Source: Shigella phage SH6. From it: DNA of 50,552 nucleotides. Location: sequence record KX828710, one strand, 5' to 3'. A program made the translations under genes and the position numbers. Positions within the stretch are counted from its first letter, which is position 1, and each line of letters starts with the position of its first letter. Below the pieces are notes generated by a model, which was not told the DNA's origin, did no database searches, and saw nothing but the letters and a program-made list of their open reading frames with translations. This document shows positions 6 through 50,192 of the stretch, piece after piece.

Positions 6-581
6 ATGAAAACTCAGCTTAAAGAAGTAACGGAATTTGAACTCAATCTGCCGGACTACATTCGCAAGGCGATTGAGAAGCACCAATCAGGGAATCATTT
101 CGCAATCACCGGAAACCAGATGGTAGCAATCTACGTGCATGAGCAGGCCGAGATTGTAAAGGTCACTCAGAATGTTGAGCTAACCGAGGAACAGATTGAT
201 GATGCCATCGCTAACGAGTACATCTCGCGCTCAGCCTGGTTGCTTGAACGACTCACGGCGTCGTATGTGTCCAATATCATCAAGCGACACATGCTCAAGG
301 TTCACAATAAGGCCGTGTCGGTTCGAATCAATCGCGATCCAATTGAAGGTGTAATCATATCCATCACCGAACTTGAAGGAGAGGAAGCAGACAAGGTCAT
401 ATGCGAAGCAAAACAGGGCAAGAGAGGCCGGAAGCGCAAGAGCATAGCCGATGTGTTCAATGCGAAGGTTGAGGCGTTCAGAATCGATCTGAGAGAGTTT
501 GAAGGTAGCAATATCTCAGTATCGGATCTCAATAAACTGGTGGAGCAATTCCGCGCGCATTTACTGGATGAGGAGAAGTAA
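6..581 (+). CDS. hypothetical early protein (191 aa)
   Basis: ORF track; ATG at 6 with GAGG RBS at the window end (circular junction); no motif recognised. Confidence 0.55.
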   Translation: MKTQLKEVTEFELNLPDYIRKAIEKHQSGNHFAITGNQMVAIYVHEQAEIVKVTQNVELTEEQIDDAIANEYISRSAWLLERLTASYVSNIIKRHMLKVHNKAVSVRINRDPIEGVIISITELEGEEADKVICEAKQGKRGRKRKSIADVFNAKVEAFRIDLREFEGSNISVSDLNKLVEQFRAHLLDEEK

Positions 582-583: not shown

Positions 584-823
584 ATGAGCAAGATTAAGCA
601 TGACGCCCTGAAAGGTATCTTGATGCGACTAAACCCAGGCGAAGCATTCCAGCTTAACCCCGAGACGTTTGGATTCAATGGTGATTATCGTACAACCTTC
701 GAATTTGTCCGGTATGTAAAGAAAGAGTTTGGATTCGAAGTTATTCACGCAGGTCTTATCAATGGCATTCAGACGTTCATCTTTAAGCCAAATGAGATTC
801 GCTGCTTCACGCTGATGAAATAG
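584..823 (+). CDS. hypothetical protein (79 aa)
   Basis: ORF track; starts 3 nt after previous stop; stop TAG is first triplet of cassette motif. Confidence 0.55.
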   Translation: MSKIKHDALKGILMRLNPGEAFQLNPETFGFNGDYRTTFEFVRYVKKEFGFEVIHAGLINGIQTFIFKPNEIRCFTLMK

Positions 824-863
824 CACTTTTTGTTAAAACCGGATCGGGATAACCTGGTATAGT
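821..863 (+). promoter_or_regulatory. intergenic cassette (palindrome + hairpin + TATAGT) upstream of 895..1089
   Basis: TAGCACTTTTTGTTAAAAC; TGgTATAGT 22 nt after TTGTTA inside hairpin GGGATAAC/GTTATCCC. Confidence 0.5.
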
Positions 864-894
864 TATCCCATCGACAACGAATGAGGAAACGAAG

Positions 895-1091: not shown

Positions 1092-1559
1092 ATGACGACC
1101 ATTACCGTATTTCTGGCTAAAGATGAATTGGACGGCGAAATGTCATTCTTCGCGTTCGAGCATAAAACAGGATCGCACTGGCACATGTACACTCATTACA
1201 CGGTCATCGCAATTGAGGCTTACGACGGCGATTTCACTAGCAAGCTGAGTAATTTTATTGAAGCCGTTAAGTCTAGCGAGGGCTGCGAGTGGAAAGAAGA
1301 TCATGAAGTTATGCGAATGTATGAGATGATCAATCCGGTTCGCCTTGAGTCTTTCGAGCTTGGTTCTGATGTGACCATTAAGGTGAGAAATGCGGGTGAG
1401 TTGTTGTCGGGGATGCGTGTGCTGACTGGTTACTCTGGCCGTAAAGTGTGGCGCACTGTATCTAAGATTCGCCAGCGATCGGCAACATGCTACAGCGTAT
1501 TCTTTGAAGATGGCTGGAATATGATGTCAGGAAGTGAAGTGAAGTATCTCACCAAATAG
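1092..1559 (+). CDS. hypothetical protein (155 aa)
   Basis: ORF track; ATGA overlap with upstream gene; ends at cassette motif. Confidence 0.55.
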   Translation: MTTITVFLAKDELDGEMSFFAFEHKTGSHWHMYTHYTVIAIEAYDGDFTSKLSNFIEAVKSSEGCEWKEDHEVMRMYEMINPVRLESFELGSDVTIKVRNAGELLSGMRVLTGYSGRKVWRTVSKIRQRSATCYSVFFEDGWNMMSGSEVKYLTK

Positions 1560-1599
1560 CACGAATTGTTAAAACAGGATCGGGGTATATTGCTATAGT
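1557..1599 (+). promoter_or_regulatory. intergenic cassette upstream of 1638..1868
   Basis: TAGCACGAATTGTTAAAAC; TGcTATAGT at +22; GGGG/CCCC hairpin. Confidence 0.5.
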
Positions 1600-1637
1600 T
1601 ACCCCATTGAAACGAGATACCAATCAGAGGATTCACC

Positions 1638-1868: not shown

Positions 1869-1874
1869 ATAATC

Positions 1875-2209: not shown

Positions 2210-2379
2210 TGCGCATTCTAATTTGCATGATGGCGGCAGTCGCCATAACTATCCTGGTTGTGTCCGTCTGTGGAGAGGTAAAAGAGCGATGCCATGAAAC
2301 CGGGAACCAGGTTACTACGTTCGTGATGGTCGGCAACGTATTGCTACCAATCACATCAAATGAAATCACTTGCGAATAG
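2206..2379 (+). CDS. putative small membrane protein (57 aa)
   Basis: Internal ATG of track ORF 2122..2379 (MMRILICMMAAVAITILVVSV...), one predicted TM helix; start uncertain. Confidence 0.35.
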   Translation: MMRILICMMAAVAITILVVSVCGEVKERCHETGNQVTTFVMVGNVLLPITSNEITCE

Positions 2380-2388
2380 GATTTAACA

Positions 2389-2580
2389 ATGGCTGATTTT
2401 ATGCACCAAATGATTGCAGTATTCAAAGGCAGCGATGACCATGAAGTAAAAGAGTGCTTTACTGTCAACAAGCCTTATAACGCATCGCTAACCAGCTTCG
2501 GGAATATCTCATTGCTTGATGATAACGGCGACCCCTGGGTATTCGACGAAGACACTGATTGCTTCGAAATTAAAGAATAG
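2389..2580 (+). CDS. hypothetical protein (63 aa)
   Basis: ORF track; ends at cassette motif TAG. Confidence 0.5.
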   Translation: MADFMHQMIAVFKGSDDHEVKECFTVNKPYNASLTSFGNISLLDDNGDPWVFDEDTDCFEIKE

Positions 2581-2620
2581 CACTTTTTGTTAAAACTCAA
2601 TTCCGGGGTTGCGATATAGT
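2578..2620 (+). promoter_or_regulatory. intergenic cassette upstream of 2652..3140
   Basis: TAGCACTTTTTGTTAAAAC; TATAGT at +22 inside GGGGTT/AACCCC hairpin. Confidence 0.5.
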
Positions 2621-2651
2621 AACCCCAACAACAACGAACGAGGACGATATA

Positions 2652-3140
2652 ATGAAAATCAAATTACTTTGCACTGGCGGTTACAAGGGATTTACCAGAG
2701 ATCTGGAAGCAGATCCTATCGTGGTTGACGCGGTGAAGTGTGATTCCAGTACTGGAGGATACCGTGTTAAGGTTGACGACCTGGTAAAAGCTGGCGTGTA
2801 CGATCTGGATTATGGACTTTCGGTTAGCTCGGTAGTCGGTCCGGCAGACTTCAACGAGAAGGACGGAACGATGTTCTTCTTCGAATGGGAAGTCCAGGCA
2901 AATCCTAAGCCGCGCAAGGTTCGACTTCTCAATAATGGCGGCTACCCGATGCGCTCGGGGTATGAGAACCGCACGTTCCCGGTTATCGTTGATTTTGAAG
3001 AAATCACCGCGCACTTAGCTTATATCAACGGTGAACATCTTAATGCTGTTGGATTCGTGGGAGGTATGAATCAAGAGGCGCTATGCTTCTTCCATTGTAA
3101 AGCCGAGCCGTTCGATATTGAGTGCGAGTTAGTCTACTAA
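2652..3140 (+). CDS. hypothetical protein (162 aa)
   Basis: ORF track; cassette upstream. Confidence 0.55.
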   Translation: MKIKLLCTGGYKGFTRDLEADPIVVDAVKCDSSTGGYRVKVDDLVKAGVYDLDYGLSVSSVVGPADFNEKDGTMFFFEWEVQANPKPRKVRLLNNGGYPMRSGYENRTFPVIVDFEEITAHLAYINGEHLNAVGFVGGMNQEALCFFHCKAEPFDIECELVY

Positions 3141-3181
3141 GCACGAATTGTTAAAAGGGGTTTTGGCCTGACTGGTATAAT
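3138..3181 (+). promoter_or_regulatory. intergenic cassette upstream of 3212..3718
   Basis: TAAGCACGAATTGTTAAAAG; TGgTATAAT at +22. Confidence 0.5.
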
Positions 3182-3211
3182 CCCCACATAAACCACTAAG
3201 AGGAAAGCATC

Positions 3212-3718
3212 ATGTTAAAATTAGAAGACGTAAAATTCCCGATTAAATTTATCAGCCTGGGTTGCGGTGAAATCACGTTCAACAATGAAGATAATGGTGT
3301 ATGGGCAACGGAAGAAGTATCACAACTTAAATTGGATTGGTTTATAAATCGGCACAATGAAGTAAATCCTGAAAACTCAGCTAAGAAGGATTGCCATTAC
3401 ATTATGAGTGGCAATAAGGATGTGTACGGCACGTATGATGCCTGGAAAACTGGTCGAGCCATCTTCAACGCCGCAAAGTCAGAAATTAAGCCTATGCTGC
3501 AATGCACTCAGATCGAGAACATGCCATTGAGCGCGACGCTAAAAGGTGTCCAGCTTGATGGTAAATCTTGGCTTGAAATCACCGCTACACCGAAGACGAT
3601 CGAGGTGCATGACGATATTATCACGTTGTTATTGCATTACGGCGGCTTTAAGCACAAGACGGTATCAGGTGAAATCAGCATTAAGCGCGGAACACTTGTA
3701 CGCTATGAGGTGAAATAA
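3212..3718 (+). CDS. hypothetical protein (168 aa)
   Basis: ORF track; cassette and AGAGGAAAG RBS upstream. Confidence 0.55.
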   Translation: MLKLEDVKFPIKFISLGCGEITFNNEDNGVWATEEVSQLKLDWFINRHNEVNPENSAKKDCHYIMSGNKDVYGTYDAWKTGRAIFNAAKSEIKPMLQCTQIENMPLSATLKGVQLDGKSWLEITATPKTIEVHDDIITLLLHYGGFKHKTVSGEISIKRGTLVRYEVK

Positions 3719-3867
3719 TGGCTGCATGGGTTTTGATTATCTTGATGAGTACCGGGCCGGATCACGTATACATGGAAAGTCAGCAATCATGCAATAAGGC
3801 TAGGGAAGCAATCGCAGAGAACAAGCCGTTCGGATATGAAGTAAAAACGATGTGCGTTAAACGATAG
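3718..3867 (+). CDS. putative small exported/membrane protein (49 aa)
   Basis: Own translation MAAWVLIILMSTGPDHVYMESQQSCNKAREAIAENKPFGYEVKTMCVKR; TAATG overlap; ends exactly at cassette motif. Confidence 0.35.
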   Translation: MAAWVLIILMSTGPDHVYMESQQSCNKAREAIAENKPFGYEVKTMCVKR

Positions 3868-3907
3868 CACGAATTGCTAAACCTTCCGCAAGGCCATTTG
3901 ATATAGT
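3865..3907 (+). promoter_or_regulatory. intergenic cassette upstream of 3948..4154
   Basis: TAGCACGAATTGCTAAACC; TGaTATAGT at +22 in hairpin AAGGCCA/TGGCCTT. Confidence 0.5.
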
Positions 3908-3947
3908 GGCCTTATTGAAGCAAGGCAACCAATCAGAGGAATCAGCT

Positions 3948-4154
3948 ATGGCTACACAACTCACTCAGTGGCAGATTTACGACAAGGCATCACGCCTACG
4001 CGAATCACTTCGCGGACTGACGCCGAACGACCGCATGGAGATTATCGGTCACGCATTGCACGAACTCACGCCGCCGGACGTAACCTATCATTCATGCGGC
4101 AATAAATTCTGGAACGTGACATTCGAGGTAAAGAAAGATGAGCAAAACTCATAA
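3948..4154 (+). CDS. hypothetical protein (68 aa)
   Basis: ATG at residue 15 of track ORF 3906..4154, preceded by CCAATCAGAGGAATC RBS. Confidence 0.5.
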   Translation: MATQLTQWQIYDKASRLRESLRGLTPNDRMEIIGHALHELTPPDVTYHSCGNKFWNVTFEVKKDEQNS

Positions 4155-4425
4155 GTTAAAAATCGCCCAGATACATTTCATCGGAGTAATGAATGGGACT
4201 AAAACGGCAGAGTTCCGCGTCAATGACCGAAACTTCCAGCCCGGCGATATCCTTGAGCTACGCGAGTTCGATCGTGACGAATTTACCGGGTGGGAAGTTC
4301 ACGCCAGGGTGTCCGATGTTACAGATGTGACACCATACATCAATCGCGGGTATGACGAGCAAGAATGCGACTTCACGCAATACGTGATGTTATCAATCAA
4401 ACCTTACAGGAAGGTTAGACCATGA
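4138..4425 (+). CDS. ASCH/DUF3850-like (PUA-fold) protein
   Basis: N-terminus KLKIAQIHFIGVMNGTKTAEFRVNDRNFQPGDILELREF matches the DUF3850/ASCH pattern as I recall it. Confidence 0.5.
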   Translation: MSKTHKLKIAQIHFIGVMNGTKTAEFRVNDRNFQPGDILELREFDRDEFTGWEVHARVSDVTDVTPYINRGYDEQECDFTQYVMLSIKPYRKVRP

Positions 4426-5060
4426 AATTTGAATGCGTATCAAGTATCGGATCTGGTTTTAAGTACGGCAAAATCTACGAAGGCGCTCGCGTCAATGACG
4501 ACAGCTTCGTTATAGTTGATGAGTACGGTAGTAACGTGAACGTTGTACGGCGTCACGAATATCAGGAAATTTTCCTGCCTTATGGCGGTAGCTCAAAATA
4601 TATCTTCCATCGAATCGTGGATGGTGTTAAATTTAACGACGTAATCGAAGCAATCAACCAACTGCATAATAAAGAGGTAAGATTTATGAAATTCGAATGT
4701 ATCAGTGATAACACCAAAAAATTTACCGTTGGCAAAATCTACGACGTGCCTACTGAGCACGCAAAGCACACTGTAGCGCTGACCGACGACACGGGCCGAC
4801 ACCGCATTGCAACCGTAACTCATAATGGCGAAGGCCTTCGTTGGAACAGTGGCGGCACTAAGTTCGCAACTTTCGGTAAGAAGCGCAATCGCACTTTCCG
4901 CGTCAACGGCAAGATCAACACCAGCAAGATTAGCAACGTCAAGCCTATTAATGTTGACCGCAAGCCAGCAATGAAGTTTGAAGAGAAAGCAGACTTGTCT
5001 GGCCTAGCTATCGCTCTTGTTCTCCTTGTCGCTTCGATTTCGCTGATGTTCATCATGTAA
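4422..5060 (+). CDS. membrane-anchored protein with two tandem MKFEC...GKIY repeats
   Basis: Internal duplication (MKFECVSS..FKYGKIYEG / MKFECISD..FTVGKIYDV); C-terminal hydrophobic helix LSGLAIALVLLVASISLMFIM. Confidence 0.55.
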   Translation: MKFECVSSIGSGFKYGKIYEGARVNDDSFVIVDEYGSNVNVVRRHEYQEIFLPYGGSSKYIFHRIVDGVKFNDVIEAINQLHNKEVRFMKFECISDNTKKFTVGKIYDVPTEHAKHTVALTDDTGRHRIATVTHNGEGLRWNSGGTKFATFGKKRNRTFRVNGKINTSKISNVKPINVDRKPAMKFEEKADLSGLAIALVLLVASISLMFIM

Positions 5061-5067
5061 TTTTAAC

Positions 5068-5100
5068 GGGGAATCGACTCTGAGCGGTTCCCCTTTCTTT
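5068..5100 (+). terminator. rho-independent terminator
   Basis: GGGGAA..TTCCCC hairpin followed by TTTCTTTT. Confidence 0.55.
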
Positions 5101-5113
5101 TGGAGAAAACACT

Positions 5114-5224
5114 ATGCCAGACTTTTCTAACTGGAATAACGAGCCGCCATCATTTCAGGAGTTGCTATTCTGCCTCCTAGTCCTGACATTATCTCTTAAG
5201 GGTGTTTTATGGCTACTATCATGA
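5114..5224 (+). CDS. possible small hydrophobic peptide (36 aa)
   Basis: Own translation MPDFSNWNNEPPSFQELLFCLLVLTLSLKGVLWLLS; GGAG RBS; after terminator; speculative. Confidence 0.2.
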   Translation: MPDFSNWNNEPPSFQELLFCLLVLTLSLKGVLWLLS

Positions 5225-5427
5225 CAGCAGAAGATGCAGCGCGTGACGCGGTGGAAGGAATGCGCCCAAACACCTCCAGAATCGCACACTACTACAAATC
5301 TGAGGTGTCGGCAGTGCAATTGGTCCACGAAATTTTAAGGCTCCCACAAGTCGATTCAGCGCGCGTGGTGACGTGCTTAAAAAATTATTTTTGCATCACT
5401 ATTAAAACGAATAGCACGAATTGCTAA
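5209..5427 (+). CDS. hypothetical protein (72 aa)
   Basis: ORF track; ends at cassette motif. Confidence 0.45.
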   Translation: MATIMTAEDAARDAVEGMRPNTSRIAHYYKSEVSAVQLVHEILRLPQVDSARVVTCLKNYFCITIKTNSTNC

Positions 5428-5454
5428 AACCTATCAAGGGGAACGCGCTATGAT
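5412..5454 (+). promoter_or_regulatory. intergenic cassette upstream of 5485..5931
   Basis: TAGCACGAATTGCTAAAAC; TATGAT at +22 in GGGGAA/TTCCCC hairpin. Confidence 0.5.
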
Positions 5455-5484
5455 TCCCCTACACTAAAAAACGAGGGAACACTC

Positions 5485-5931
5485 ATGAAACATTTGATTT
5501 GCATTGAAACACCTAACGACCAGTACACTCTTCATGGCCTGGGTGTGTTCAAAGGTCACTACATTACCGCAGGAATTTACGATGCTCGTCGCGGAGATGG
5601 CGATCTAATGATTACGTCAAAAGAAGTAAATCCGTACATTATGCAGAATCTTGGCAATAACGAATATATGGCCTACGGCTGCAACGCGGTGTATAAGCAT
5701 ATCAAGATCCGCAAGCGTGTTGTGCGTGCATTCAAGAAGATTGCAATGAAATACTGGAAAATGAGCAAGAAAGATGCCGGACGTTGGGCGCGCAACGTTG
5801 CAGATTCATACTTCTATCGTAACGGCGAATCCTGCTACTTTCTGATCGATGAACTTATGGAAAACTACGGTGGCGACTTCAGCCAGGATAGCTTTGATGG
5901 CTGGGCCGACTATGAGATCAGTTGCTGGTAA
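5485..5931 (+). CDS. hypothetical protein (148 aa)
   Basis: ORF track; cassette and RBS upstream. Confidence 0.55.
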   Translation: MKHLICIETPNDQYTLHGLGVFKGHYITAGIYDARRGDGDLMITSKEVNPYIMQNLGNNEYMAYGCNAVYKHIKIRKRVVRAFKKIAMKYWKMSKKDAGRWARNVADSYFYRNGESCYFLIDELMENYGGDFSQDSFDGWADYEISCW

Positions 5932-5932
5932 T

Positions 5933-5974
5933 AGCACGAATTGCTAAAACTTGCTCAAGGGCATTTGTTAGAAT
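5933..5974 (+). promoter_or_regulatory. intergenic cassette upstream of 6015..6548
   Basis: TAGCACGAATTGCTAAAAC; TGtTAGAAT at +22 in GGGCATT/AATGCCC hairpin. Confidence 0.5.
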
Positions 5975-6014
5975 GCCCTTCGTTGAGTTAAGCAACCAAT
6001 CAGAGGAATAAATC

Positions 6015-6548
6015 ATGGATAAAATTACCATTTGGGGCCAGACAATCAACCTGTTTCTCGGCACGCGCCGCGTAGCAATCTTTGACTTTGACGGAACACT
6101 TAGCGATGGATCTGGTCGACTTCACCTGCTACCTACAAAGGATTTGCACTTAACTGAAAGCTGGTCCGAGTTTAACCGCGCGGCAATATTTGACAACCCT
6201 ATCCAAAGCACGATCGATGTGATGAACTCTATGTTTGCCGCTGGATATCATGTAATAATTTTAACCGGGCGAAGTGATGAGGTGCGTTACGCATCTGAGT
6301 TATGGCTTAAGCATCACGGCGCTCGATATGATTACTTAGTCATGCGACCGCATACCGACAACCGCAAAGACACGGTAATGAAAGAAGAGGCGGTGCGCGC
6401 GATCGGCATTGATAACATTCTGGCGGCTTGGGATGACTCGCCGCAAATTATTCCATTATTCAGATCGCTTGGGATAACCACTTACGCTGTAGTTGACTAT
6501 GGCGATAACGTTCACAATCATTTAAAATCTCACGGGGTAGATGAATGA
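6015..6548 (+). CDS. HAD-superfamily phosphatase (nucleotidase / polynucleotide 3'-phosphatase-like)
   Basis: HAD motif I FDFDGTL, motif III-like ILTGRS, motif IV AAWDDSP. Confidence 0.6.
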   Translation: MDKITIWGQTINLFLGTRRVAIFDFDGTLSDGSGRLHLLPTKDLHLTESWSEFNRAAIFDNPIQSTIDVMNSMFAAGYHVIILTGRSDEVRYASELWLKHHGARYDYLVMRPHTDNRKDTVMKEEAVRAIGIDNILAAWDDSPQIIPLFRSLGITTYAVVDYGDNVHNHLKSHGVDE

Positions 6549-6656
6549 ACCTATACGAATTTATTGCAGCGCATCCGGTATTAACGGTTATCATTCTGCT
6601 AATCATCAATCACACCATCATCAATGTGGCAAAATTATTTTTAGGGAGATACTGAC

Positions 6657-7229
6657 ATGAAAACAGCTATCATTTTAAACGGTGCGCCTGGCGCGGGAAA
6701 AGACACTATAGGGTGCATCCTGGCTGACACTTACGATCATGTAGCGCTACGCAGCTTTAAAGCTCCAATGTTTGAGATTGCCCGAGCAATCTTGGGTGAG
6801 ACTAATTTCGAGTATTTCATGTTCTTGTATGAGGACCGTCGCTATAAAGAAGAGCCAGCATCAATCCTGAATGGTAAAAGCCCGCGCCAGTTTATGATCT
6901 GGATTAGCGAGGAGGTCATCAAGCCGCAGTTCGGAAATCGCTTCTTCGGTATGCGAGCGGAAAGCAAGGTGAAAGAGTCGCACTCCCTTTCGGTATTTAC
7001 TGACGGTGGATTCAAAGATGAGATCCTACAAATGATTGAGGGTGATATCCAGGTTAAGCTATGTCGAATCCATCGCAACGGTTGCAGCTTTGATAACGAC
7101 AGCCGAGACTATATCTATCTTGACGACATGATCGGGGTTAACGGTTATCAGGAATGTGACTTCTTTTCTGTCGAAGGTCATCCAGAAATTACCGCTCAGC
7201 ACATAGCCGCCACGTTCATCAATAAATAG
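6657..7229 (+). CDS. deoxynucleoside monophosphate kinase-like P-loop kinase
   Basis: Walker A GAPGAGKDT and NGKSP motif, both resembling T4 gp1-type dNMP kinase. Confidence 0.55.
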   Translation: MKTAIILNGAPGAGKDTIGCILADTYDHVALRSFKAPMFEIARAILGETNFEYFMFLYEDRRYKEEPASILNGKSPRQFMIWISEEVIKPQFGNRFFGMRAESKVKESHSLSVFTDGGFKDEILQMIEGDIQVKLCRIHRNGCSFDNDSRDYIYLDDMIGVNGYQECDFFSVEGHPEITAQHIAATFINK

Positions 7230-7269
7230 CACTAATTGCTAAAACGTCGGTGGGGTGATTTGATATAGT
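7227..7269 (+). promoter_or_regulatory. intergenic cassette upstream of 7302..7511
   Basis: TAGCACTAATTGCTAAAAC (perfect TAGCA-N5-TGCTA palindrome); TGaTATAGT at +22. Confidence 0.5.
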
Positions 7270-7301
7270 TACCTCATCGACAACGAAGAGAGAAAATCGA
7301 A

Positions 7302-7511
7302 ATGATGGTATCAACTGATAAGTTTTTCACTTGCACTAAAACTTCTGAAGTATTCGAACTGGCTCATACTGATAATGGTGACTTCATGCATGACGGTTGC
7401 GACGTTTTCATTGAAGTGAAAGAAAGCGACTATGACGACGGAGTTTATTATAACCCGGCAGTGAACACTCAGTTTTTTACCCCGATCGAAGAGGAAGGAG
7501 AAGAAGCATGA
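7302..7511 (+). CDS. hypothetical protein (69 aa)
   Basis: ORF track; cassette upstream. Confidence 0.5.
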   Translation: MMVSTDKFFTCTKTSEVFELAHTDNGDFMHDGCDVFIEVKESDYDDGVYYNPAVNTQFFTPIEEEGEEA

Positions 7512-7852
7512 TCACGATTAACCTGTCAGATAAACAAGCGCGTGAAATCCTCGACACTATCGGTGAACAACTTCACGTAAAAGGCGCTACCGCTGAGATT
7601 CTTAACCAGATCGAAAGACAGCTAACCCCGGCATCAACGAATCAATCTGAGTTTGCAGCCTGGAAGAGCGAGCGAATCCTGCCAAATATCATCAAGGCAT
7701 GGAAGCGCAAGCATAAAAAAGAAATTAACGTTGAGGATTTATTCACCGATGAATTAAGTCCTTCAAAGGTTGCTAAATATCAGTTGCGATACATGGAGTT
7801 GGTTTTCAATCAGGTTTTAGGTGTTAATTCTTCATTTGGGAGAGGTAAGTAA
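7508..7852 (+). CDS. hypothetical protein (114 aa)
   Basis: ORF track; ATGA overlap. Confidence 0.5.
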   Translation: MITINLSDKQAREILDTIGEQLHVKGATAEILNQIERQLTPASTNQSEFAAWKSERILPNIIKAWKRKHKKEINVEDLFTDELSPSKVAKYQLRYMELVFNQVLGVNSSFGRGK

Positions 7853-8082
7853 TGTTCGGTTTAAGCGAAGCGGAGTGGAATGTTGTAAAGCGTGCCGCGA
7901 AAGAATTAAACAAATTCGTCAGCGGAATGAAGAAAGAAGATCGGAAAAACGACAAGATTATGATTGACGTAATTTCGACTCACCATAAAAAGGTCGAGCT
8001 ACTCATTGACCGCTACAAATTTGTCTGGACTGCCGGGTATATTGCAGGGCGCGTAGGTAACAAAGAAGGGGATTACGAATAA
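7852..8082 (+). CDS. hypothetical protein (76 aa)
   Basis: ORF track; stop/start overlap. Confidence 0.5.
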   Translation: MFGLSEAEWNVVKRAAKELNKFVSGMKKEDRKNDKIMIDVISTHHKKVELLIDRYKFVWTAGYIAGRVGNKEGDYE

Positions 8083-8285
8083 TGGCTAATTTACCGAAGA
8101 AAGGCAATCAGGTTCGGTGTGTCACCTCACGCAATGGAGATGCTTTCTCAGCTGGGTGCGCGTACGACGTAGAAAAAGTCAGTAAGTCAAAGAGGCTTGT
8201 ATTCGTGTACGGCGACGATGGAAACCTGCATGAGATTGATTACCCACAGGATGTGACTAATGGTCAATTCGAAATTAATGATTGA
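8082..8285 (+). CDS. hypothetical protein (67 aa), possible member of KC..Y.V..DDxG small-domain family
   Basis: ORF track; VRCVTS..FSAGCAYDVEK..VFVYGDDGN resembles repeats in 4422..5060. Confidence 0.5.
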   Translation: MANLPKKGNQVRCVTSRNGDAFSAGCAYDVEKVSKSKRLVFVYGDDGNLHEIDYPQDVTNGQFEIND

Positions 8286-8449
8286 CCTAAATCCCTGAGC
8301 GGTGATAGTATTAATCCCGTAGACAGACGAGGCGCAGTTAGGCGCAACGCGTGAGACGATTCTCACACTTCCAGCTAACAAGCTCGGTTGCATAGTGGTT
8401 AAGCAACGCCGTAGACCCGTAAGCGGCAAAAATTCAAGAGGATTGCATA

Positions 8450-8611
8450 ATGCAAAACACTAAAGATGAATCAGTCAAAATTGAAATTAAAGTAACTCGC
8501 AACGGTGAAACAACTCGTTATAAAAAACGATTAAATCCTGGCGAGGCTGTTATTGGTCGCATTGCTGGCGTTATGATTAAGGCGCAGGAAGATGAAGCGA
8601 TTCAAAGTTAA
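8450..8611 (+). CDS. possible small protein (53 aa)
   Basis: Own translation MQNTKDESVKIEIKVTRNGETTRYKKRLNPGEAVIGRIAGVMIKAQEDEAIQS; AAGAGGATT RBS; below track cutoff. Confidence 0.35.
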   Translation: MQNTKDESVKIEIKVTRNGETTRYKKRLNPGEAVIGRIAGVMIKAQEDEAIQS

Positions 8612-8777: not shown

Positions 8778-8778
8778 C

Positions 8779-9039: not shown

Positions 9040-9076
9040 GCCTGCAATATGGTAAAATAGCACTAAATGTTAAACG
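9040..9076 (+). promoter_or_regulatory. variant cassette / putative promoter of packaging operon
   Basis: TGgTAAAAT extended -10-like element followed by TAGCACTAAATGTTAAAC and terS RBS; just after terminator. Confidence 0.4.
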
Positions 9077-15757: not shown

Positions 15758-15785
15758 TTGACGCTTTAACAAAAAGTGCTATTAT
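15758..15785 (+). promoter_or_regulatory. candidate sigma70 promoter upstream of major capsid gene (overlaps reverse-oriented cassette half-motif)
   Basis: TTGACG-N16-TATTAT; spacer contains TTAACAAAAAGTGCTAT, the reverse complement of the cassette motif. Confidence 0.4.
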
Positions 15786-19495: not shown

Positions 19496-19568
19496 GTAAA
19501 ATCATCCTATCAACTTTATTCGATTAACTTTTAACAAAAAGTGCTATCAACCAATCAGGAGAAACATC

Positions 19569-25704: not shown

Positions 25705-25737
25705 TCCACCGATAAATAGCACAAAAAGGTAAACATC

Positions 25738-31994: not shown

Positions 31995-32068
31995 ACGGCA
32001 CAAATAGCTAAACAAATAATTAATGAGGTGTTATAATGCACCTCATACACCAATCAGGAGAAGCTAAG

Positions 32069-35949: not shown

Positions 35950-35990
35950 AAAATAAAAAACGCGTAGAAGGATGTTAACCCGCTACGCGT
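35950..35990 (-). terminator. terminator-like hairpin after Cro-like gene (minus strand)
   Basis: ACGCGTAG...CTACGCGT inverted repeat with A-run on plus strand. Confidence 0.45.
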
Positions 35991-35998
35991 CGTTTGTT

Positions 35999-36451
35999 TT
36001 AACTAAAAATGCTATTGGTCGTTCCGATATCTTCCTTCTTCACGACGCGCATAAATTTCTTGTTCTTGCATCGCTTCTCAAGGCACTTGCCGTTACCGTC
36101 AAACTTCAGGTCGAATCGCAACCATGCGGCGCGAAATCCTTTGCACCCCTGTCGGCGGTAAGCACGATGCGCAGCTTCAGCACCTTGCCATGAAATCATA
36201 TTGCGTTCTTTCCAGCCCTGCACCGTCTGATTGCTAACCTTCAGAGCCTTTGCGCAGGCCGCCGGGCCGCCGTAATATTCGATAAGGGCATCAAGTCGCG
36301 CTCGCAGTCCGGCGCGCGTTTCTTCTTTATGAATATAGAAGCCGCAGCGCTGTCGTGGCTTTTTGTCTTTACCGCGTCGTGTTCCGTTGTTACCATTGAT
36401 GTGACGTTTATCGATTTCACCAGTTGACTCCGCGATACGTTGAATACTCAT
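35999..36451 (-). CDS. Cro/YdaS-like HTH DNA-binding protein
   Basis: ACAKALKVSNQTVQGWKERNMISWQGAEAAHRA..LRFD matches YdaS/Cro-type HTH; divergent from helicase gene. Confidence 0.55.
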   Translation of the reverse strand: MSIQRIAESTGEIDKRHINGNNGTRRGKDKKPRQRCGFYIHKEETRAGLRARLDALIEYYGGPAACAKALKVSNQTVQGWKERNMISWQGAEAAHRAYRRQGCKGFRAAWLRFDLKFDGNGKCLEKRCKNKKFMRVVKKEDIGTTNSIFS

Positions 36452-36464
36452 CTTGATTCTCCTA

Positions 36465-36507
36465 TAGCACTTTTTGCTAAAAACGTTTACTGTATGCCGT
36501 GTATTAT
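36465..36507 (+). promoter_or_regulatory. intergenic cassette upstream of helicase gene
   Basis: TAGCACTTTTTGCTAAAAAC; TATTAT at +22 in hairpin CGTTTAC/GTAAACG. Confidence 0.5.
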
Positions 36508-36516
36508 AGCGTAAAC
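36484..36516. promoter_or_regulatory. divergent overlapping -10 elements in hairpin between Cro-like gene and helicase gene
   Basis: Inverted repeat CGTTTAC..GTAAACG with central TATTATA: TATTAT on plus, TATAAT on minus. Confidence 0.45.
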
Positions 36517-36544
36517 GTTACAACGATTCAAAGGATTAATAGAC

Positions 36545-38563: not shown

Positions 38564-38976
38564 TTACAGACAAAGGTGATTATTTAGAATTTTACGAGAG
38601 AGATCCGAGCGACACTCGAAAGGAGGACGCTCATCAGGTGGATTGTGTATCTTGGCTGAAATACAATTTTCCTCACCTTCTATTTTGGCACACCGTCAAT
38701 GAGGGTGAAAAAACAATCACATCGGCGCTCAGGGATGAGCAGTCCGGATTACTTAAAGGTGTGTCAGACTTCGTTATCCTGATTGGTATTAACTCACGCT
38801 ACCCGTTCGCAGCTATCGAACTCAAGCGGGTTAATAAGTCAGGCAAAGGAAAGGCGTCACCAGTCAGTGATAAGCAGAAGGAGTTTCTCCGAAAGGTCCG
38901 AGAACGTGGCGGCTTCCCTGCTGTCGCATACGGATTCGAACAGTTCAAAGTCGCAATTTACGAATTGATGAAATAG
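38560..38976 (+). CDS. VRR-NUC domain nuclease
   Basis: VSDFVILI..AAIELKR..S..Q pattern of VRR-NUC (PD-(D/E)xK). Confidence 0.65.
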   Translation: MITDKGDYLEFYERDPSDTRKEDAHQVDCVSWLKYNFPHLLFWHTVNEGEKTITSALRDEQSGLLKGVSDFVILIGINSRYPFAAIELKRVNKSGKGKASPVSDKQKEFLRKVRERGGFPAVAYGFEQFKVAIYELMK

Positions 38977-39016
38977 CACTTTTTGTTAAAACTGCCGGAA
39001 TGGAATCTGGCATTAT
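38974..39016 (+). promoter_or_regulatory. intergenic cassette upstream of dam
   Basis: TAGCACTTTTTGTTAAAAC; TGgCATTAT at +22; near-identical inverted copy at 48640..48711. Confidence 0.5.
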
Positions 39017-39043
39017 TACCTCACCGAAACGAGAGGACTAAAG

Positions 39044-39757: not shown

Positions 39758-40005
39758 TGAGCGAAAAAATTGTTCCTGTTAAATTAACTGAGCAAGGTTT
39801 ATGGCTTCTTTATCGCGCTACGTGCTGCGAGATTATGGAGCGAAACGGATTGACTCAGGATGTTATTGGTTGCGATCTGTGGGAGTTCACTAGCTCTCTT
39901 GATATGTCTTTCGAAGAGATAAAGAATGAATACATTGAGAATTGGCCCTCAATCATCCAAAAAGACGTAGAAGAACTTTCTTCTGAGATAATCACACAGC
40001 ACTAA
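39754..40005 (+). CDS. hypothetical protein (83 aa)
   Basis: ATG at residue 15 of track ORF 39712..40005; ATGA overlap with dam. Confidence 0.5.
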   Translation: MMSEKIVPVKLTEQGLWLLYRATCCEIMERNGLTQDVIGCDLWEFTSSLDMSFEEIKNEYIENWPSIIQKDVEELSSEIITQH

Positions 40006-40039
40006 TTGCTAAAACTACCCGGCGAAAGTCGGGTATAGT
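39996..40039 (+). promoter_or_regulatory. intergenic cassette upstream of 40072..40281
   Basis: AGCACTAATTGCTAAAAC; TATAGT at +22 in hairpin. Confidence 0.5.
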
Positions 40040-40071
40040 TATTTCATAGAAACAAAATGAGGAATCAGAAG

Positions 40072-40841: not shown

Positions 40842-41993
40842 ATGTCACAAGCTAAAATCACTACCGAGCAACTTATCGAAGAACGTATGAACGGACTTAC
40901 ACTTCGCGAGATCGCGGAAAAGTACGGTATGCACATTCGCACTGTCGAGGCGCGTCACGCAAAACTTGCAAAAGAAGGCCACTTCCACGGTAACGAGCAT
41001 GTTGCTAAAAACGTGCCGGAAGGCTTCATGGTAAAAGGCACTTCTACGATGATTCGCGGCGATGGGACTGAGGTAGTTCGCTGGGTTAAGACCGATCAGG
41101 ACCGTGAGAAGATTGCGGCAATGATGGAAGCTGCGCGTATTGCATTCTGTGAAGACCTGCCGCGAGCAAAGCCAACCGAGCTACTAACCTCGCAAGGGCT
41201 TACGACAGCGATGGGTAAGCTGGCACTCTATCCGGTATTCGATCTCCATATTGGCGCGCTTGCTCATAAGCATGAATGCGGTGAGAACTATTCCACCGAC
41301 GTAGCGGAAAAAGTGCTTAGCGACTTCTTTAATTACGCGATCGATATTGCGCCGAACGCAGAGAAGGCTGTTCTGTTAATCGGCGGCGACTTCCTTCACT
41401 CTGACGGCCTTGACGCTGTTACCCCGGCAAGTGGTCACGTTCTAGATCAGGATTCACGATATGCGAAATTGGTGCATGTAGCGATTCGTTCGGTGCGTCG
41501 CGCCATCGACAAAATGCTTATGAAACACAAAGAAGTCGAGGTCCAAGTTATCGAAGGGAACCACGATCAGTCTGGGATGATTTGGCTGCGAGCTGCAATG
41601 TCGGCATATTATGAAGACGAGCCGCGAGTATTCGTTGACGTTAGTCCTATGATTCTGCATAAGACTCGTTGGGGAAATACCTTGTTGGGATACACTCACG
41701 GGCACACTATGAAAAAGGCAGACACGCGACTTGCAGCAATGGCGGCAGATTTCCGATCAGACTTCGGCGAGAGCAAGTATGTGTATACTCATAGTGGTCA
41801 CTGGCATCACCAGACAATCACTGAGCACTCGCTTGGTATTGATGAAGTACACGGTCAGTTAGGCGCGAAAGACGCATACGCAGCACGCGGAGGGTGGCGC
41901 TCATATCGCCAGGCGGCTGTAATTGTTTACGATAAGCAGTTTGGGGAAATCGGTCGATTCATCTACCGTCCAGAAATGACAGGATCGCACTAA
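40842..41993 (+). CDS. calcineurin-like metallophosphoesterase (Mre11/SbcD-like motifs) with N-terminal HTH
   Basis: Motifs DLHIG, GGDFLH, GNHD, plus His-rich C-terminus; N-terminal LTLREIAEKYGMHIRTVEARHAKL HTH. Confidence 0.6.
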   Translation: MSQAKITTEQLIEERMNGLTLREIAEKYGMHIRTVEARHAKLAKEGHFHGNEHVAKNVPEGFMVKGTSTMIRGDGTEVVRWVKTDQDREKIAAMMEAARIAFCEDLPRAKPTELLTSQGLTTAMGKLALYPVFDLHIGALAHKHECGENYSTDVAEKVLSDFFNYAIDIAPNAEKAVLLIGGDFLHSDGLDAVTPASGHVLDQDSRYAKLVHVAIRSVRRAIDKMLMKHKEVEVQVIEGNHDQSGMIWLRAAMSAYYEDEPRVFVDVSPMILHKTRWGNTLLGYTHGHTMKKADTRLAAMAADFRSDFGESKYVYTHSGHWHHQTITEHSLGIDEVHGQLGAKDAYAARGGWRSYRQAAVIVYDKQFGEIGRFIYRPEMTGSH

Positions 41994-42027
41994 TTGATAA
42001 AAATGCCCGAAGGGATTCGGGTATAGT
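41985..42027 (+). promoter_or_regulatory. intergenic cassette (variant) upstream of 42057..42233
   Basis: GCACTAATTGATAAAAA variant; TATAGT at +22 in CCCGAA/TTCGGG hairpin. Confidence 0.45.
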
Positions 42028-42056
42028 AACCACATCGAAAACAAAGAGGCTATATC

Positions 42057-43684: not shown

Positions 43685-43721
43685 GATGCTTTCCTTCAGG
43701 TCGTTTCGTTTCGATGAAACA

Positions 43722-43765
43722 AATATACCCGATACGAGATCGGGTGTTTTAACAAAAAGTGCTAT
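43722..43765 (-). promoter_or_regulatory. intergenic cassette (minus orientation) upstream of 43469..43684
   Basis: Minus strand ATAGCACTTTTTGTTAAAAC; TATATT at +22; CATCGAAACGA leader. Confidence 0.5.
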
Positions 43766-44285: not shown

Positions 44286-45857
44286 TTAACCCATCAGTCG
44301 AGGATTGATGAAAACAATATCATCAATACGGCAAGTGTAGTTCATCTCTTCGAGCGTGATCAGCAGGCTGTCGATTCGCTCAGATACTTTCTGCTGACCG
44401 TTGAACGGCGTAACGTTCCGGCACTTTGCAACAATACTATGAATAGGTGCGCGGCCTTTGTTCTTCTTCGCGATCTCAGTGATAACATCAATCAGCTTAC
44501 GAGATTCAGCCTCATCACCAGCATACCCGGCAGCGCTGGCAGACGACAGATAAGTCCTGGAAAGCTCATTGAAAATCATGATTGCTTCCTGCATTGTTTC
44601 AAGGTCAATCTCACGGTTGGAACGGTTCGGTGATTCACCCTCCCAATTCTTGATCGTGTGGAGAACTGAAGCAATACGCAAGGCATGCTTATCGAACTTG
44701 CCTAGATGACCGCGTAGCATTGAGTGAGAGTATTTTCCCCCGGCTGCGAAATCCGGCTCCATCGCCTGACGCGCAAGGTTTAATTCACGCATAGCATTGC
44801 GGCTTACAGAGAGAACAATGTTATCCTCCTTCATAATGTTGTGCACGAGTCGATAATATTTACTCACCAACCCTCGATCGACTTCCTTATACAGCGCATC
44901 ACCATTTTCATCGCAAAGAATACGAGTACCTAAAAGCGGTTCCTCGCGAACCAGGAGGAAACGCTCAGATACACCGATGCCGCGCTGGCCTGCGTCCATG
45001 ATACCCTTGATTGTTTCATCCTGCGCAATGACGCAGATCGAACCGACTGGGCAAAGAGATAAGTTGTTGTCCTGATTTGAACGCGCAACCTCCATATGGT
45101 TTTTATCCCACGCCTTGAGGATAAGCTCGCTGTTTGATTTCTTATCAGAGCCGCCATAAGTCAGGCCAAGCAATGTATTTATTGCCGTTGCCTCATCAGA
45201 GATTACTGAGAAATGACCTTGAACAGCGGCTACTTTCGCAAGACCTTCCGGTGTAGGATCTGATACCGCAAAAACAATATCAGCCATCTTCTTGATCTTC
45301 TCTTCAAGTTTTTCCTTGTCCTCGTAGAGCGCCGCCGTCGTGTTACCCTTCGGATCGTTTTTGATTTCCTTCTCGACCTGACGTAGCTGACTGGTTAAAC
45401 GGATGCGCTCCTTTTTTCGCTCTTCATTCAGCCGCTGAATCTCCGCACGCATAGGTGTAATCGCCGCTGAGTTAATCGCCGATTTACCTGTTGAAGGTGG
45501 CTGGCTAATCACCATATAAAGAGCGGTCGGCTGCTCTTCTCCGTGATATTGCACCCAAAACTTCCCGAGCATCGCGGCTGAGATGCACCCAATGAAATGA
45601 GCGTACGCAGACGAAACAGGGAACTGTACAGACTCAGCCTTTGCTTTTGCATATTCGAATACCAGGTTATCGCCACCTAACGAAATCAGCGGGAACTTAT
45701 CGTTTCCACTGTTGATATCGATCGGATCTTGCCAAAACGAAACTGAATCCCCATAGCTGTTTTCACGAATTGCGATCGCCACCGGATTAACTCCAGTGCT
45801 ATTTGCGATCTCAATAATCTGTTGGTAATTCAGTTTTGGCTTAATATTAAACATCAC
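44286..45857 (-). CDS. P-loop NTPase, putative replication-associated protein
   Basis: Walker A-like QPPSTGKSA; 523 aa; cassette upstream. Confidence 0.5.
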   Translation of the reverse strand: MMFNIKPKLNYQQIIEIANSTGVNPVAIAIRENSYGDSVSFWQDPIDINSGNDKFPLISLGGDNLVFEYAKAKAESVQFPVSSAYAHFIGCISAAMLGKFWVQYHGEEQPTALYMVISQPPSTGKSAINSAAITPMRAEIQRLNEERKKERIRLTSQLRQVEKEIKNDPKGNTTAALYEDKEKLEEKIKKMADIVFAVSDPTPEGLAKVAAVQGHFSVISDEATAINTLLGLTYGGSDKKSNSELILKAWDKNHMEVARSNQDNNLSLCPVGSICVIAQDETIKGIMDAGQRGIGVSERFLLVREEPLLGTRILCDENGDALYKEVDRGLVSKYYRLVHNIMKEDNIVLSVSRNAMRELNLARQAMEPDFAAGGKYSHSMLRGHLGKFDKHALRIASVLHTIKNWEGESPNRSNREIDLETMQEAIMIFNELSRTYLSSASAAGYAGDEAESRKLIDVITEIAKKNKGRAPIHSIVAKCRNVTPFNGQQKVSERIDSLLITLEEMNYTCRIDDIVFINPRLMG

Positions 45858-45884
45858 AATAAACTCCTTAGTTGACGGTGTGAA

Positions 45885-45927
45885 TGATACACCGCCAATG
45901 GTACACGCGTTTTACAAAAAGTGCTAT
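45885..45927 (-). promoter_or_regulatory. intergenic cassette (minus) upstream of 44286..45857
   Basis: Minus strand ATAGCACTTTTTGTAAAAC; TATCAT at +22; AAGGAG RBS. Confidence 0.5.
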
Positions 45928-46356: not shown

Positions 46357-46383
46357 TCCTGATTGGTTATCTTGAATAAGGCC

Positions 46384-46427
46384 ACTTTATCAAATGACCT
46401 TACGGCAATATTAACAAATCGTGCTAT
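46384..46427 (-). promoter_or_regulatory. intergenic cassette (minus) upstream of 45931..46356
   Basis: Minus strand ATAGCACGATTTGTTAA; TGaTAAAGT at +22; CCAATCAGGAG RBS. Confidence 0.5.
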
Positions 46428-46865: not shown

Positions 46866-46899
46866 TTTTAATTCCTTTATTTCGTTTGGTGTGGGAGTA

Positions 46900-46946
46900 A
46901 TATATATCACTCCCGATCGTATGTCTTTAGCAATTCGTGCTATTAG
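46900..46946 (-). promoter_or_regulatory. intergenic cassette (minus) upstream of 46641..46865
   Basis: Minus strand TAGCACGAATTGCTAAAG; A/T-rich -10-like TATATA at about +22. Confidence 0.45.
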
Positions 46947-48218: not shown

Positions 48219-48250
48219 ATGGTGATTCTCCTGATTGGTTGATGTTGTTT

Positions 48251-48296
48251 ACTATACCCCGATTCCCTTCGGGGCGTTTAGCAATTCGTGCTATTA
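48251..48296 (-). promoter_or_regulatory. intergenic cassette (minus) upstream of 47988..48218
   Basis: Minus strand TAGCACGAATTGCTAAAC; TATAGT at +22 in CCCCGAAGGG hairpin. Confidence 0.5.
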
Positions 48297-48629: not shown

Positions 48630-48667
48630 TTCCCTACTCCTGATGTGTATCTCGTTTCGATGAAGTA

Positions 48668-48711
48668 ATAATGCCAGATTCCATTCCGGCAGTTTTAACA
48701 AAAAGTGCTAT
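48668..48711 (-). promoter_or_regulatory. intergenic cassette (minus) upstream of 48294..48629
   Basis: ~60 nt near-identical to plus-strand cassette at 38974..39035. Confidence 0.5.
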
Positions 48712-49098: not shown

Positions 49099-49131
49099 TT
49101 TGTTTTTCCTCAATCTCGTTTCGATGAGGTA

Positions 49132-49175
49132 ATTATGCCAAATCGCACCGATCTGGTTTTAACAAAAAGTGCTAT
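49132..49175 (-). promoter_or_regulatory. intergenic cassette (minus) upstream of 48913..49098
   Basis: Minus strand ATAGCACTTTTTGTTAAAAC; CATAAT at +22; CATCGAAACGAGA leader. Confidence 0.5.
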
Positions 49176-49863: not shown

Positions 49864-49897
49864 CGTGACTCCCTCTTCTGATTGGTTTATGGCCCGA

Positions 49898-49941
49898 ACT
49901 ATACCCTGACAACTTGGTCAAGTCGTTAGCAAAAAATGCTA
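49898..49941 (-). promoter_or_regulatory. intergenic cassette (minus) upstream of C5-MTase-like gene
   Basis: Minus strand TAGCATTTTTTGCTAACGAC (perfect palindrome); TATAGT ~23 nt downstream. Confidence 0.5.
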
Positions 49942-50192
49942 TTCCAATAATTGCTCATTATTCCATCAATAATGGAATAGGTGGAATAATTTTGATTGCG
50001 ATTGATTGCAAATGATGAAACGTGATTATTGCATGATGTGCAACGGTTGGTTGATTTGTTGCTGAGAATGCAATGATTGCGAGAGGGGGGATCTAGTGTT
50101 ACCCGGTTCGCCTGGTGGTCATCTCCATTCTTAGCAAAACGTGCTATTCGTCTATGCGGTAGTTGTAATTGTCGTAATAGTTGTATACCATC

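Follow-up and report, generated by a model that had tools for sequence, protein, structure and literature searches.

Repeated cassettes of Shigella phage SH6 resemble class II marbox promoters with an overlaid RNA hairpin

Introduction

Which signal directs the early genes of a T1-like phage, and what kind of protein reads it? The question is raised by a locus of Shigella phage SH6 (sequence record KX828710), at which the palindrome TAGCANNNNNTGCTA (TAGCA-N5-TGCTA; 5412-5426) precedes a −10-like hexamer. In the whole 50,552-nt stretch that was analysed, called the window below, this palindrome has 11 copies against 0.03 expected. The window belongs to a T1-like coliphage (Drexlerviridae, Tunavirus), with about 92% identity to JMPW1, IME167 and CLB_P3 by megablast. 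T1 belongs to the classic set of seven T phages, and our literature searches found no transcriptome or start-site map for a T1-like phage. A sequence-only reading of the locus had taken the repeated units for activator-dependent extended −10 promoters, switched on together by a dimeric helix-turn-helix (HTH) protein bound to the palindrome near −41, or else for RNA processing or stability elements. From the analysis presented here, we consider it reasonably probable that each cassette is a σ70 promoter of the class II Mar/Sox/Rob type, with a hairpin as an overlaid second signal.

The repeat itself is known. It is the 21-nt direct repeat aaATAGCACnnnTTGnTAAAA described in phage TLS and noted for T1, Rtp and Rogue1 (German, Kropinski, Misra et al. 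2024, PMC11447400). TLS has 18 intergenic copies, oriented with transcription, about 76 nt ahead of start codons and divided into A/T/G subgroups, and only three σ70-like intergenic promoters were reported there (PMC11447400). Stoperators, enhancer sites and UP elements were suggested by these authors, who left the function an open question; the repeat is not linked in that work to a −10 hexamer 18 bp away, to a hairpin or to a marbox (PMC11447400). The other T1-like genome papers examined do not describe the repeat. Existing annotations mostly label the hairpins of the cassettes as terminators, and the record of Rogunavirus AKS96 annotates two promoters, TTGACA(N23)TATAAT and TTGACA(N29)TATAAT. 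Our literature searches found no link between the marbox and phages, or between T1-like phages and MarA or SoxS, and to read the repeat as a class II marbox promoter that shares the geometry of micF and is overlaid with an RNA hairpin appears to be new.

Results

The cassettes resemble promoters lacking a −35 element

The palindrome is a subset of a longer, asymmetric and oriented box, aaATAGCACnnWTTGYTAAAAc, of which the window holds about 29 copies. Alignment on the conserved core gives aaATAGCACnnnTTGyTAAAAc, followed by a spacer of constant length, tG.TAtaaT, six bases and a conserved A. The conserved positions of the box are A1 T2 G4 C5 A6 C7, W9 W10, T12 G13, Y14 T15 and A16-A18. The same cassettes are found in Klebsiella phage KP36, Erwinia phage Snitter, Rogunavirus AKS96, 'Vibrio' phage Vc1 and many IMG/VR contigs; in a scan of IMG/VR for the box, multi-copy matches fell on contigs of about 28-53 kb, mostly of about 50 kb as for T1-like genomes, and matches elsewhere were single. 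For the family-wide counts, 350 distinct box contexts were pooled from about 126 loci.

A good −10 hexamer, defined by A2, T6 and at least four matches out of six, lies at one exact offset in 244 of the 350 cassettes, and no other offset accounts for more than 27. The offset is 22 nt past TTGnTA, that is, 18 bp past the 20-bp box; the spacer sequence varies freely, and the layout is fixed in the window, in KP36 and in Snitter. The hexamers take forms such as TATAGT, TATTAT and CATAAT, with A2 and T6. In the family-wide set, G is present at −14 in 87% and TG in 43%, and the full TGn occurs in 10 of the 21 window cassettes. The earlier statement that most copies read TGnTATAGT was thus overstated, only the G at −14 being near-invariant, and it fails at the very copy for which it was made, which reads CGC-TATGAT. 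The exact string TGNTATAGT occurs 4 times in the window against 0.99 expected, a count that 3 of 100 shuffles reach and that is not significant.

The claim that no TTGACA-like −35 is present holds well. Family-wide, 228 of the 244 cassettes match the −35 consensus at three positions or fewer; in the window, the match 16-18 nt upstream of the −10 is 1-4 out of six, with 2-3 in nearly all copies. CA is found at −1/+1 in 164/244 cassettes, and A at +1 in about 86%. In all 21 full window cassettes the box, hexamer, predicted start, ribosome-binding site (RBS) and start codon share one orientation, the box being always forward relative to the −10. The inverted repeat indeed lies about 30 nt upstream of the hexamer, since TATGAT (5449-5454) starts 30 nt past the palindrome centre. 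The box would occupy about −50 to −31, with its centre at −40.5, or at −41.5 if the start is one base further, which agrees with the class II position near −41/−42 that had been proposed. Because of the fixed −10 offset, the G at −14, the lack of a −35 and the CA at −1/+1, we read the cassettes as −35-less promoters; in silico, they look like σ70 promoters with a sequence-specific element at the class II position.

Two other promoter readings of the box were rejected. TTGnTA cannot well be a displaced −35, because its 22-nt spacer is too long for σ70. The σ54 consensus, which we take to be TGGCAC-N5-TTGCW with GG and GC 10 bp apart (−24/−12), is not matched either: TAGCAC-N3-TTGY has AG rather than GG, and its spacing is 2 bp short. 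Canonical σ70 promoters are not enriched in the window (13 vs 19 expected; 32 vs 30 expected), and only two strong intergenic ones stand out outside the structural region.

The box matches the marbox in sequence and micF in geometry

What kind of protein would recognise such a box? MarA, SoxS and Rob, and in Klebsiella and Salmonella also RamA, are stress activators of the bacterial host that have two HTH motifs and bind as monomers to a site called the marbox. The marbox, as defined by the Grainger laboratory, is the non-palindromic sequence 5′-gcannwwntgnnaaa-3′; at class II promoters it is forward, overlaps the −35 and is centred between −36 and −55 (PMC12052159). The window has 22 exact matches where 1.06 are expected; 21 of these matches are boxes of the ATAGCAY type. 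On a position weight matrix (PWM) built from the 53 Salmonella MarA/SoxS/Rob/RamA sites obtained by chromatin immunoprecipitation sequencing (ChIP-seq) and printed in PMC10268841, the phage boxes score 15-18 bits, whereas the training sites reach 17.3 at most, with a median of 10.8. Several of the real ChIP-seq sites are almost the same as phage boxes, among them GCATTTTTTGCTAAA, GCACTTTTTGCAAAA and CCACGATTTGCTAAA of mar.

The E. coli micF promoter was used for calibration. It reads box ACAGCACTGAATGTCAAAAC, 18 bp, TAGAAT, 7 nt, +1, so that micF and the phage cassettes have the same box orientation and the same 18-bp distance from box to hexamer. The micF soxbox, made of GCAC and CAAA elements, is centred at −41.5 (PMC9638938), and RamA binds micF at about −41 (PMC8811837). 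Class II promoters are without a recognisable −35, σ region 4 being displaced there, and the mean −35 match of those in Salmonella is 1.9/6 (PMC10268841). All the features that define a class II marbox promoter in silico are present in the cassettes, and binding is predicted on that basis. The consensus sites of Lrp (YAGHAWATTWTDCTR), OxyR/LysR (ATAG-N7-CTAT), IHF and Fis are partial or out of register against the box; these readings were dropped because the marbox fitted every conserved box position.

The claim of a symmetric operator for a dimeric HTH protein did not survive this comparison. Family-wide, position 14 of the box is a pyrimidine in 238/244 cassettes and positions 9-10 are A/T, and the palindrome, which arises where position 14 is C, is present in only 123/244. 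Conservation is asymmetric (C7 against T11, with the AAAA tail on one side only), the orientation is fixed, and the palindrome is absent in KP36 and AKS96 at the locus of the phage regulator itself. The box would look like a dyad because the GCA...TGC that belongs to the marbox is combined with n3 = A and Y14 = C. The dimer-on-palindrome idea is probably wrong, and a monomeric AraC-family host activator would fit the box better.

The central triplet of the box co-varies with position 14: boxes with GAA or TAA mostly have TTGCTA, and those with TTT mostly have TTGTTA. These classes are the G/A/T subgroups noted for TLS, and all of them stay within the marbox rules (W at 9-10, Y at 14). The subgroups may reflect differences in affinity or timing, or just duplication lineages.

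A hairpin is selected in the spacer and discriminator

The segment folded comprised 40 nt, from the 3′ end of the box to 12 nt past the hexamer; statistics were taken for each sequence, and the stem register varies. A hairpin with a z score below −2 was found in 194 of 244 cassettes, compared with 10 of 200 random 40-mer controls. The hexamer lies in the loop in 124, the hairpin lies wholly upstream of the hexamer in 71, and the two overlap in 17. The sequence-only reading had placed the hexamer in the loop or 3′ arm, which is right for the copy it described and for about half of the cassettes; elsewhere the hairpin is upstream. Stems vary among copies and orthologues with compensatory changes, such as GGGGAA/TTCCCC here and GGGGTA/TACCCC in KP36. 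The sense strand folds 2.2 kcal/mol more stably than the antisense strand, whereas composition-matched shuffles predict the opposite (+1.0; paired p 4e-31). This excess in stability indicates that the hairpin is selected as a sense single strand.

Since the cassette's own predicted start is at or past the 3′ arm, only transcripts that continue from the upstream gene could contain the hairpin. A sense-strand T tract (at least 5 T in the next 8 nt) follows only 25 of 242 hairpins, and most of them are therefore not canonical terminators; intrinsic termination was rejected as their general identity on this ground, and a minority of the hairpins wholly upstream of the hexamer were flagged as terminator-like. 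We infer that these hairpins probably protect 3′ ends, cause pausing or terminate transcription weakly. Within the roughly 75-nt intergenic region, sequence-specific constraint is missing only from the spacer and discriminator, which would explain why the hairpin is packed into them. As to the suggestion that the unit is an RNA element instead of a promoter, an RNA-level role is apparent from the selection on the sense strand, but it would be additional to the promoter and not an alternative to it.

Candidate proteins for the box

Two phage genes had been put forward as sources of the activator. The product of 35999..36451 is confirmed as a Cro-like HTH protein, but it is the weaker rival as binder of the box. 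It is a core gene of the family, present in 823 phage records; a sequence search of the protein against the PDB gave nothing informative. Klebsiella, Erwinia, Rogunavirus and 'Vibrio' phages carry the box without change, although their Cro-like protein is only 45-58% identical and differs in the putative recognition helix. A conserved host reader would be the easier explanation for this invariance. Co-variation of regulator and box was sought in the distant relative Vc1, in which the box is unchanged, so that the comparison does not discriminate.

The box in the 5′ untranslated region (5′UTR) of the Cro-like gene adjoins the Shine-Dalgarno sequence. The −10 of this gene's promoter (36503-36508, − strand) overlaps that of the helicase promoter (36502-36507, + strand). 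Within 36452-36544 the divergent promoters thus stand face to face and share −10 base pairs, an arrangement kept in KP36 and AKS96. Because of the shared base pairs only one of the two could be occupied by RNA polymerase at a time, and a factor bound to the box could switch transcription back and forth between the regulator and the replication genes. In the Cro-like protein, invariance is greatest over residues 1-35, a basic Asn/Gly-rich N-terminal arm (IDKRxxNGNNGTRRGKDKKPRKR), which AlphaFold predicts to be disordered (pLDDT about 50); this arm probably becomes folded when it meets DNA, RNA, RNA polymerase or another partner.

The other candidate, 40842..41993, encodes 383 aa with an N-terminal HTH like σ70 region 4.2 and a weak match to calcineurin-like metallophosphatases; the KP36 orthologue passes the Pfam cut-off for the σ70-region-4-like HTH. 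The HTH is there as stated, yet nothing ties this product to the box. Elsewhere it is annotated as 'DNA repair exonuclease'. A search with MarA and SoxS sequences found no homologue among 558 six-frame open reading frames (ORFs) of the window.

Boxes outside activating positions and late-region units

Several boxes lie where they could not activate (Table 1). Those at 9057, 25716 and 40328 are directly upstream of start codons, and the 34922 box is directed away from the tail-fibre gene. A reversed box is also present in Erwinia phage Snitter, in the late region equivalent to that of 15763-15782. Boxes in such positions could repress, if one factor binds all boxes; for the reversed boxes at 15763-15782 and 19528-19547, repression of the sense promoter and short antisense RNAs are alternatives. 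If the + strand promoter around 15763-15782 is real, the capsid-region gene starting at GTG 15793 would be leaderless.

Three related late terminator-promoter units are found at 9007-9057, 23479-23529 and 25658-25708. Each combines a GC hairpin and T tract with a −35-like TTGCGC or TTCGGC in the loop and 3′ arm, and CAATAT, TAGAAT or TATAAT 17 bp past the −35-like element; a box stands in the 5′UTR of two of the three, the boxes at 9057 and 25716 being just downstream of such units. The mechanical ORF start of the small terminase (ATG 9067) falls within the box, and the RBS-preceded ATG about 24 nt downstream of 9067 is the more likely start.

Genome layout and other signals

Small early genes occupy 1-9000 on the + strand and structural genes 9.6-29 kb, likewise on the + strand; 29-50 kb carries, on both strands, replication, methylase and lysis genes together with a second arm of small genes. 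Rfam and tRNA scans of the window gave no match, and a terminator scan showed no enrichment over expectation. A large non-coding region (49950-50510) separates the two divergent early arms and holds the short tandem repeats TGATTGCAAA (x2.4) and CGGTTGCAC (x2.6) as well as a 60-nt AT-only tract (ATAGATAATA-type). The other strong σ70 promoter, TTGACA-18-TAACAT at 50480-50509, faces gene 6..581. This region may be an origin or an immediate-early control region.

A shared leader motif, ACCAATCAG(G/A)AG, which includes the Shine-Dalgarno sequence, has 12 matches against 0.35 expected, for example at 1619-1630, 3928-3939, 5995-6006, 19550-19561, 32049-32060, 46356-46367, 48228-48239 and 49875-49886. 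A second leader type, ATCGAAACGA, comes after many predicted starts. Both may act in translation initiation or in stability.

Table 1. Cassettes, boxes and related features in the window
Feature	Position	Strand	Remarks
20-bp box ATAGCACGAATTGCTAAAAC	5411..5430	+	contains palindrome 5412-5426; GCACGAATTGCTAAA is an exact marbox core; PWM score 17.6 bits
−10 hexamer TATGAT	5449..5454	+	18 bp past box; CGC before it, G at −14, no T at −15; predicted start A5461
Hairpin GGGGAA...TTCCCC	5437..5460	+	−10 hexamer in loop and 3′ arm
Start codon of the 5411 cassette	ATG 5485	+	
Full cassette (box, 18 bp, TGG-TATAGT, A+1)	820..870	+	ahead of ATG 895
Full cassette	1556..1606	+	ahead of ATG 1638
Full cassette	2577..2627	+	ahead of ATG 2652
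Full cassette (TGG-TATAAT)	3138..3188	+	ahead of ATG 3212
Full cassette	3864..3914	+	ahead of ATG 3948
Full cassette	5931..5981	+	ahead of ATG 6015, polynucleotide kinase gene
Full cassette	7226..7276	+	ahead of ATG 7302
Box without −10 downstream	9057..9076	+	between late promoter-like −10 and small-terminase RBS; not an activating position
Reversed box, late region	15763..15782	−	fills spacer of + strand TTGACG-16-TGC-TATTAT
Reversed box	19528..19547	−	directly upstream of RBS of gene 19569
Degenerate box	25716..25735	+	just upstream of ATG 25738 (tail-tip/fibre gene), downstream of TATAAT
Cassette, 17-bp spacer, perfect TGT-TATAAT	31995..32044	+	ahead of Erf-like recombinase gene
Degenerate box	35965..36015	−	overlaps stop codon of regulator gene; then true terminator hairpin, then primase gene (GTG 35937)
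Cro-like HTH protein gene, 150 aa	35999..36451	−	
σ70 promoter TTGAAT-17-TATAAT of Cro-like gene	36503..36531	−	−10 at 36503-36508
Helicase cassette	36464..36514	+	GTG 36545; box in 5′UTR of divergent regulator gene
−10 of helicase cassette	36502-36507	+	overlaps −10 of divergent σ70 promoter
Full cassette	38973..39023	+	ahead of Dam methylase gene, ATG 39044
Full cassette, TATAGT 18 bp past box	39996..40046	+	box ACAGCACTAATTGCTAAAAC closest to micF box ACAGCACTGAATGTCAAAAC
Full cassette	41984..42034	+	ahead of ATG 42057
Full cassette	43715..43765	−	ahead of ATG 43684
Cassette	45877..45927	−	ahead of second helicase gene (44286..45857)
Cassette	46377..46427	−	ahead of GTG 46356
Cassette, 19-bp spacer	46892..46943	−	ahead of ATG 46865
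Full cassette	48244..48294	−	ahead of ATG 48218
Full cassette	48661..48711	−	ahead of ATG 48629
Full cassette	49125..49175	−	
Cassette, 19-bp spacer	49891..49942	−	ahead of Dcm-like methylase gene, ATG 49863

Discussion

We propose the following mechanism for the cassettes. The element ATAGCACnnWTTGYTAAAAc would be a forward marbox of consensus strength at about −50 to −31, replacing the −35, and the −10 (TATAGT-like, with G at −14 and often TG) would be the hexamer 18 bp downstream. Transcription would start at the conserved A, 7 nt past the hexamer, and a short leader with the RBS would come next. A monomeric host activator of the AraC family, with two HTH motifs, would bind the box and contact the C-terminal domain of the RNA polymerase α subunit (α-CTD) and σ region 4, as at micF; candidates are MarA, SoxS and Rob, and in Klebsiella also RamA. 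Through such an activator, about 21 transcription units of early and DNA-metabolism genes would be turned on jointly. The 5+5 palindrome would be a by-product of the partial dyad of the marbox (GCA...TGC), and the hairpin would form in transcripts of the upstream gene that continue into the cassette.

Several points weigh against this proposal. Levels of MarA and SoxS are low unless the cell is stressed, and most Rob, although made constitutively, is aggregated and inactive; T1 grows well in ordinary broth. Possible explanations for growth in plain broth are a very high affinity of the boxes, a basal activity of the −10, or release of the activator triggered by infection. Promoters of the extended −10-like kind may also fire without any activator. 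Host class II promoters such as micF have no hairpin in the spacer. In addition, the Cro-like gene is conserved, has its own canonical promoter and carries a box in its own leader, which is the arrangement expected of a phage-encoded master regulator.

The last point leads to the explanation in which the dimeric Cro-like protein binds TAGCA-N5-TGCTA at about −42, acts as a class II activator and represses itself through the box in its leader. It would account for growth without host stress signals. The half-site centres are 10 bp apart, as for HTH dimers, and the gene is a core gene, found in those 823 records, has one of the two strong intergenic σ70 promoters outside the structural region and keeps its 5′UTR box arrangement in KP36 and AKS96. 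However, hardly more than half of the boxes (123/244) are palindromic, the box at the gene's own locus being among the non-palindromic ones in KP36 and AKS96; the conservation of the box is asymmetric and its orientation fixed; the box does not vary across genera, although the HTH region is conserved less than the rest of the protein; and convergence would have to account for both the 15/15 marbox match and the micF geometry. We regard this explanation as rather unlikely. The good −10 hexamers, with their frequent G at −14 or TG, would also suit constitutive promoters of the extended −10 type served by RNA polymerase unaided, the box being a shut-off operator or stoperator, or a decoy for MarA/SoxS/Rob. 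Some boxes do lie where they could only repress (in a late promoter spacer and in 5′UTRs), about 29 consensus boxes per genome would be strong competitors of the degenerate marboxes of the host, and the stoperator idea was raised by the TLS authors (PMC11447400). Set against this, the exact 18-bp distance across a free spacer sequence argues for a stereospecific contact with RNA polymerase, the box is forward at every full cassette, and −50 to −31 is a poor site from which to repress a promoter that does not use its −35. Constitutive promoters with an operator or decoy box are accordingly quite improbable in our view.

That the whole unit is an RNA element of polycistronic transcripts, serving processing, stability or protein binding, and not a promoter at all, we hold to be very improbable indeed. 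It is true that the hairpin is selected on the sense strand and that cassettes sit between co-directional genes, and the AU-rich UUGYUAAAAC before a stem resembles RNase E contexts. But the TAnnnT hexamer, the G at −14, the fixed offset and the CA 7 nt later would all be left unexplained, as would the reversed copies and the exact marbox match, and there is no Rfam match.

The boxes in potentially repressing positions suggested a further extension of the class II marbox reading, in which the activator works as a timer. Replication would multiply the roughly 29 boxes and titrate the pool of activator, which would shut the early promoters and relieve the boxes of the late genes and of the Cro-like gene. 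Almost all early and DNA-metabolism transcription would then be hard-wired to Mar/Sox/Rob by way of about 20 consensus class II marboxes, and the phage would sense bile, oxidants and antibiotics and drain the multidrug-resistance regulon. We rate this extension unlikely, and put it forward as speculation.

What would the class II marbox reading mean for T1-like phages? It supplies a promoter for nearly every early gene and names MarA, SoxS, Rob and RamA as candidate activators. If it is true, the efficiency of infection would depend on bile salts, salicylate, oxidants and mar-type antibiotic-resistance mutations, and the phage would titrate the regulon that controls AcrAB-TolC and the porins. 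It would then be of relevance to combinations of phages and antibiotics against E. coli and Klebsiella.

How do the cassettes compare with known systems? The middle and late promoters served by Mor and C of phage Mu, and the middle promoters served by MotA of phage T4, have a good −10 and no −35, and their activators, placed around −30 to −50, contact the α-CTD or σ. The cassettes share with them the good −10, the missing −35 and an upstream sequence-specific site. In contrast, the Mu and T4 activators are phage-encoded, the Mor dyad is at about −43.5 and the MotA box at −30, and their sequences are unrelated to the box. No Mor-family Pfam match was present among ten window proteins scanned, and homologues of MotA and AsiA were not searched for. 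Promoters of the galP1 type, with CRP at −41.5, have the same activator position and likewise rely on the −10 region, but a CRP dimer binds them at a true 22-bp dyad, whereas the phage box is oriented and asymmetric, and only 43% of the cassettes have TG. Stoperators of the mycobacteriophage L5 type are asymmetric repressor sites that are spread through transcription units, block elongation and stand in no fixed relation to a promoter. They were rejected as a general model, because the boxes have a fixed 18-bp relation to the −10 and lie upstream of the predicted starts; a few extra boxes in 5′UTRs could act in a stoperator-like way.

The class II MarA/SoxS/Rob/RamA promoters of the host (micF, and also lpxC P2, lpxL P1 and rfaY P1) resemble the cassettes in the GCAC-N7-AAA box. 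As in the micF type, this box is forward over the −35 position and centred near −41, and a canonical −10 is present without a −35. Unlike the host promoters, whose boxes are degenerate, the phage has about 29 boxes of consensus strength on one virulent genome, and its units are arranged in tandem ahead of single genes or short operons, with a GC-rich hairpin in the spacer and discriminator.

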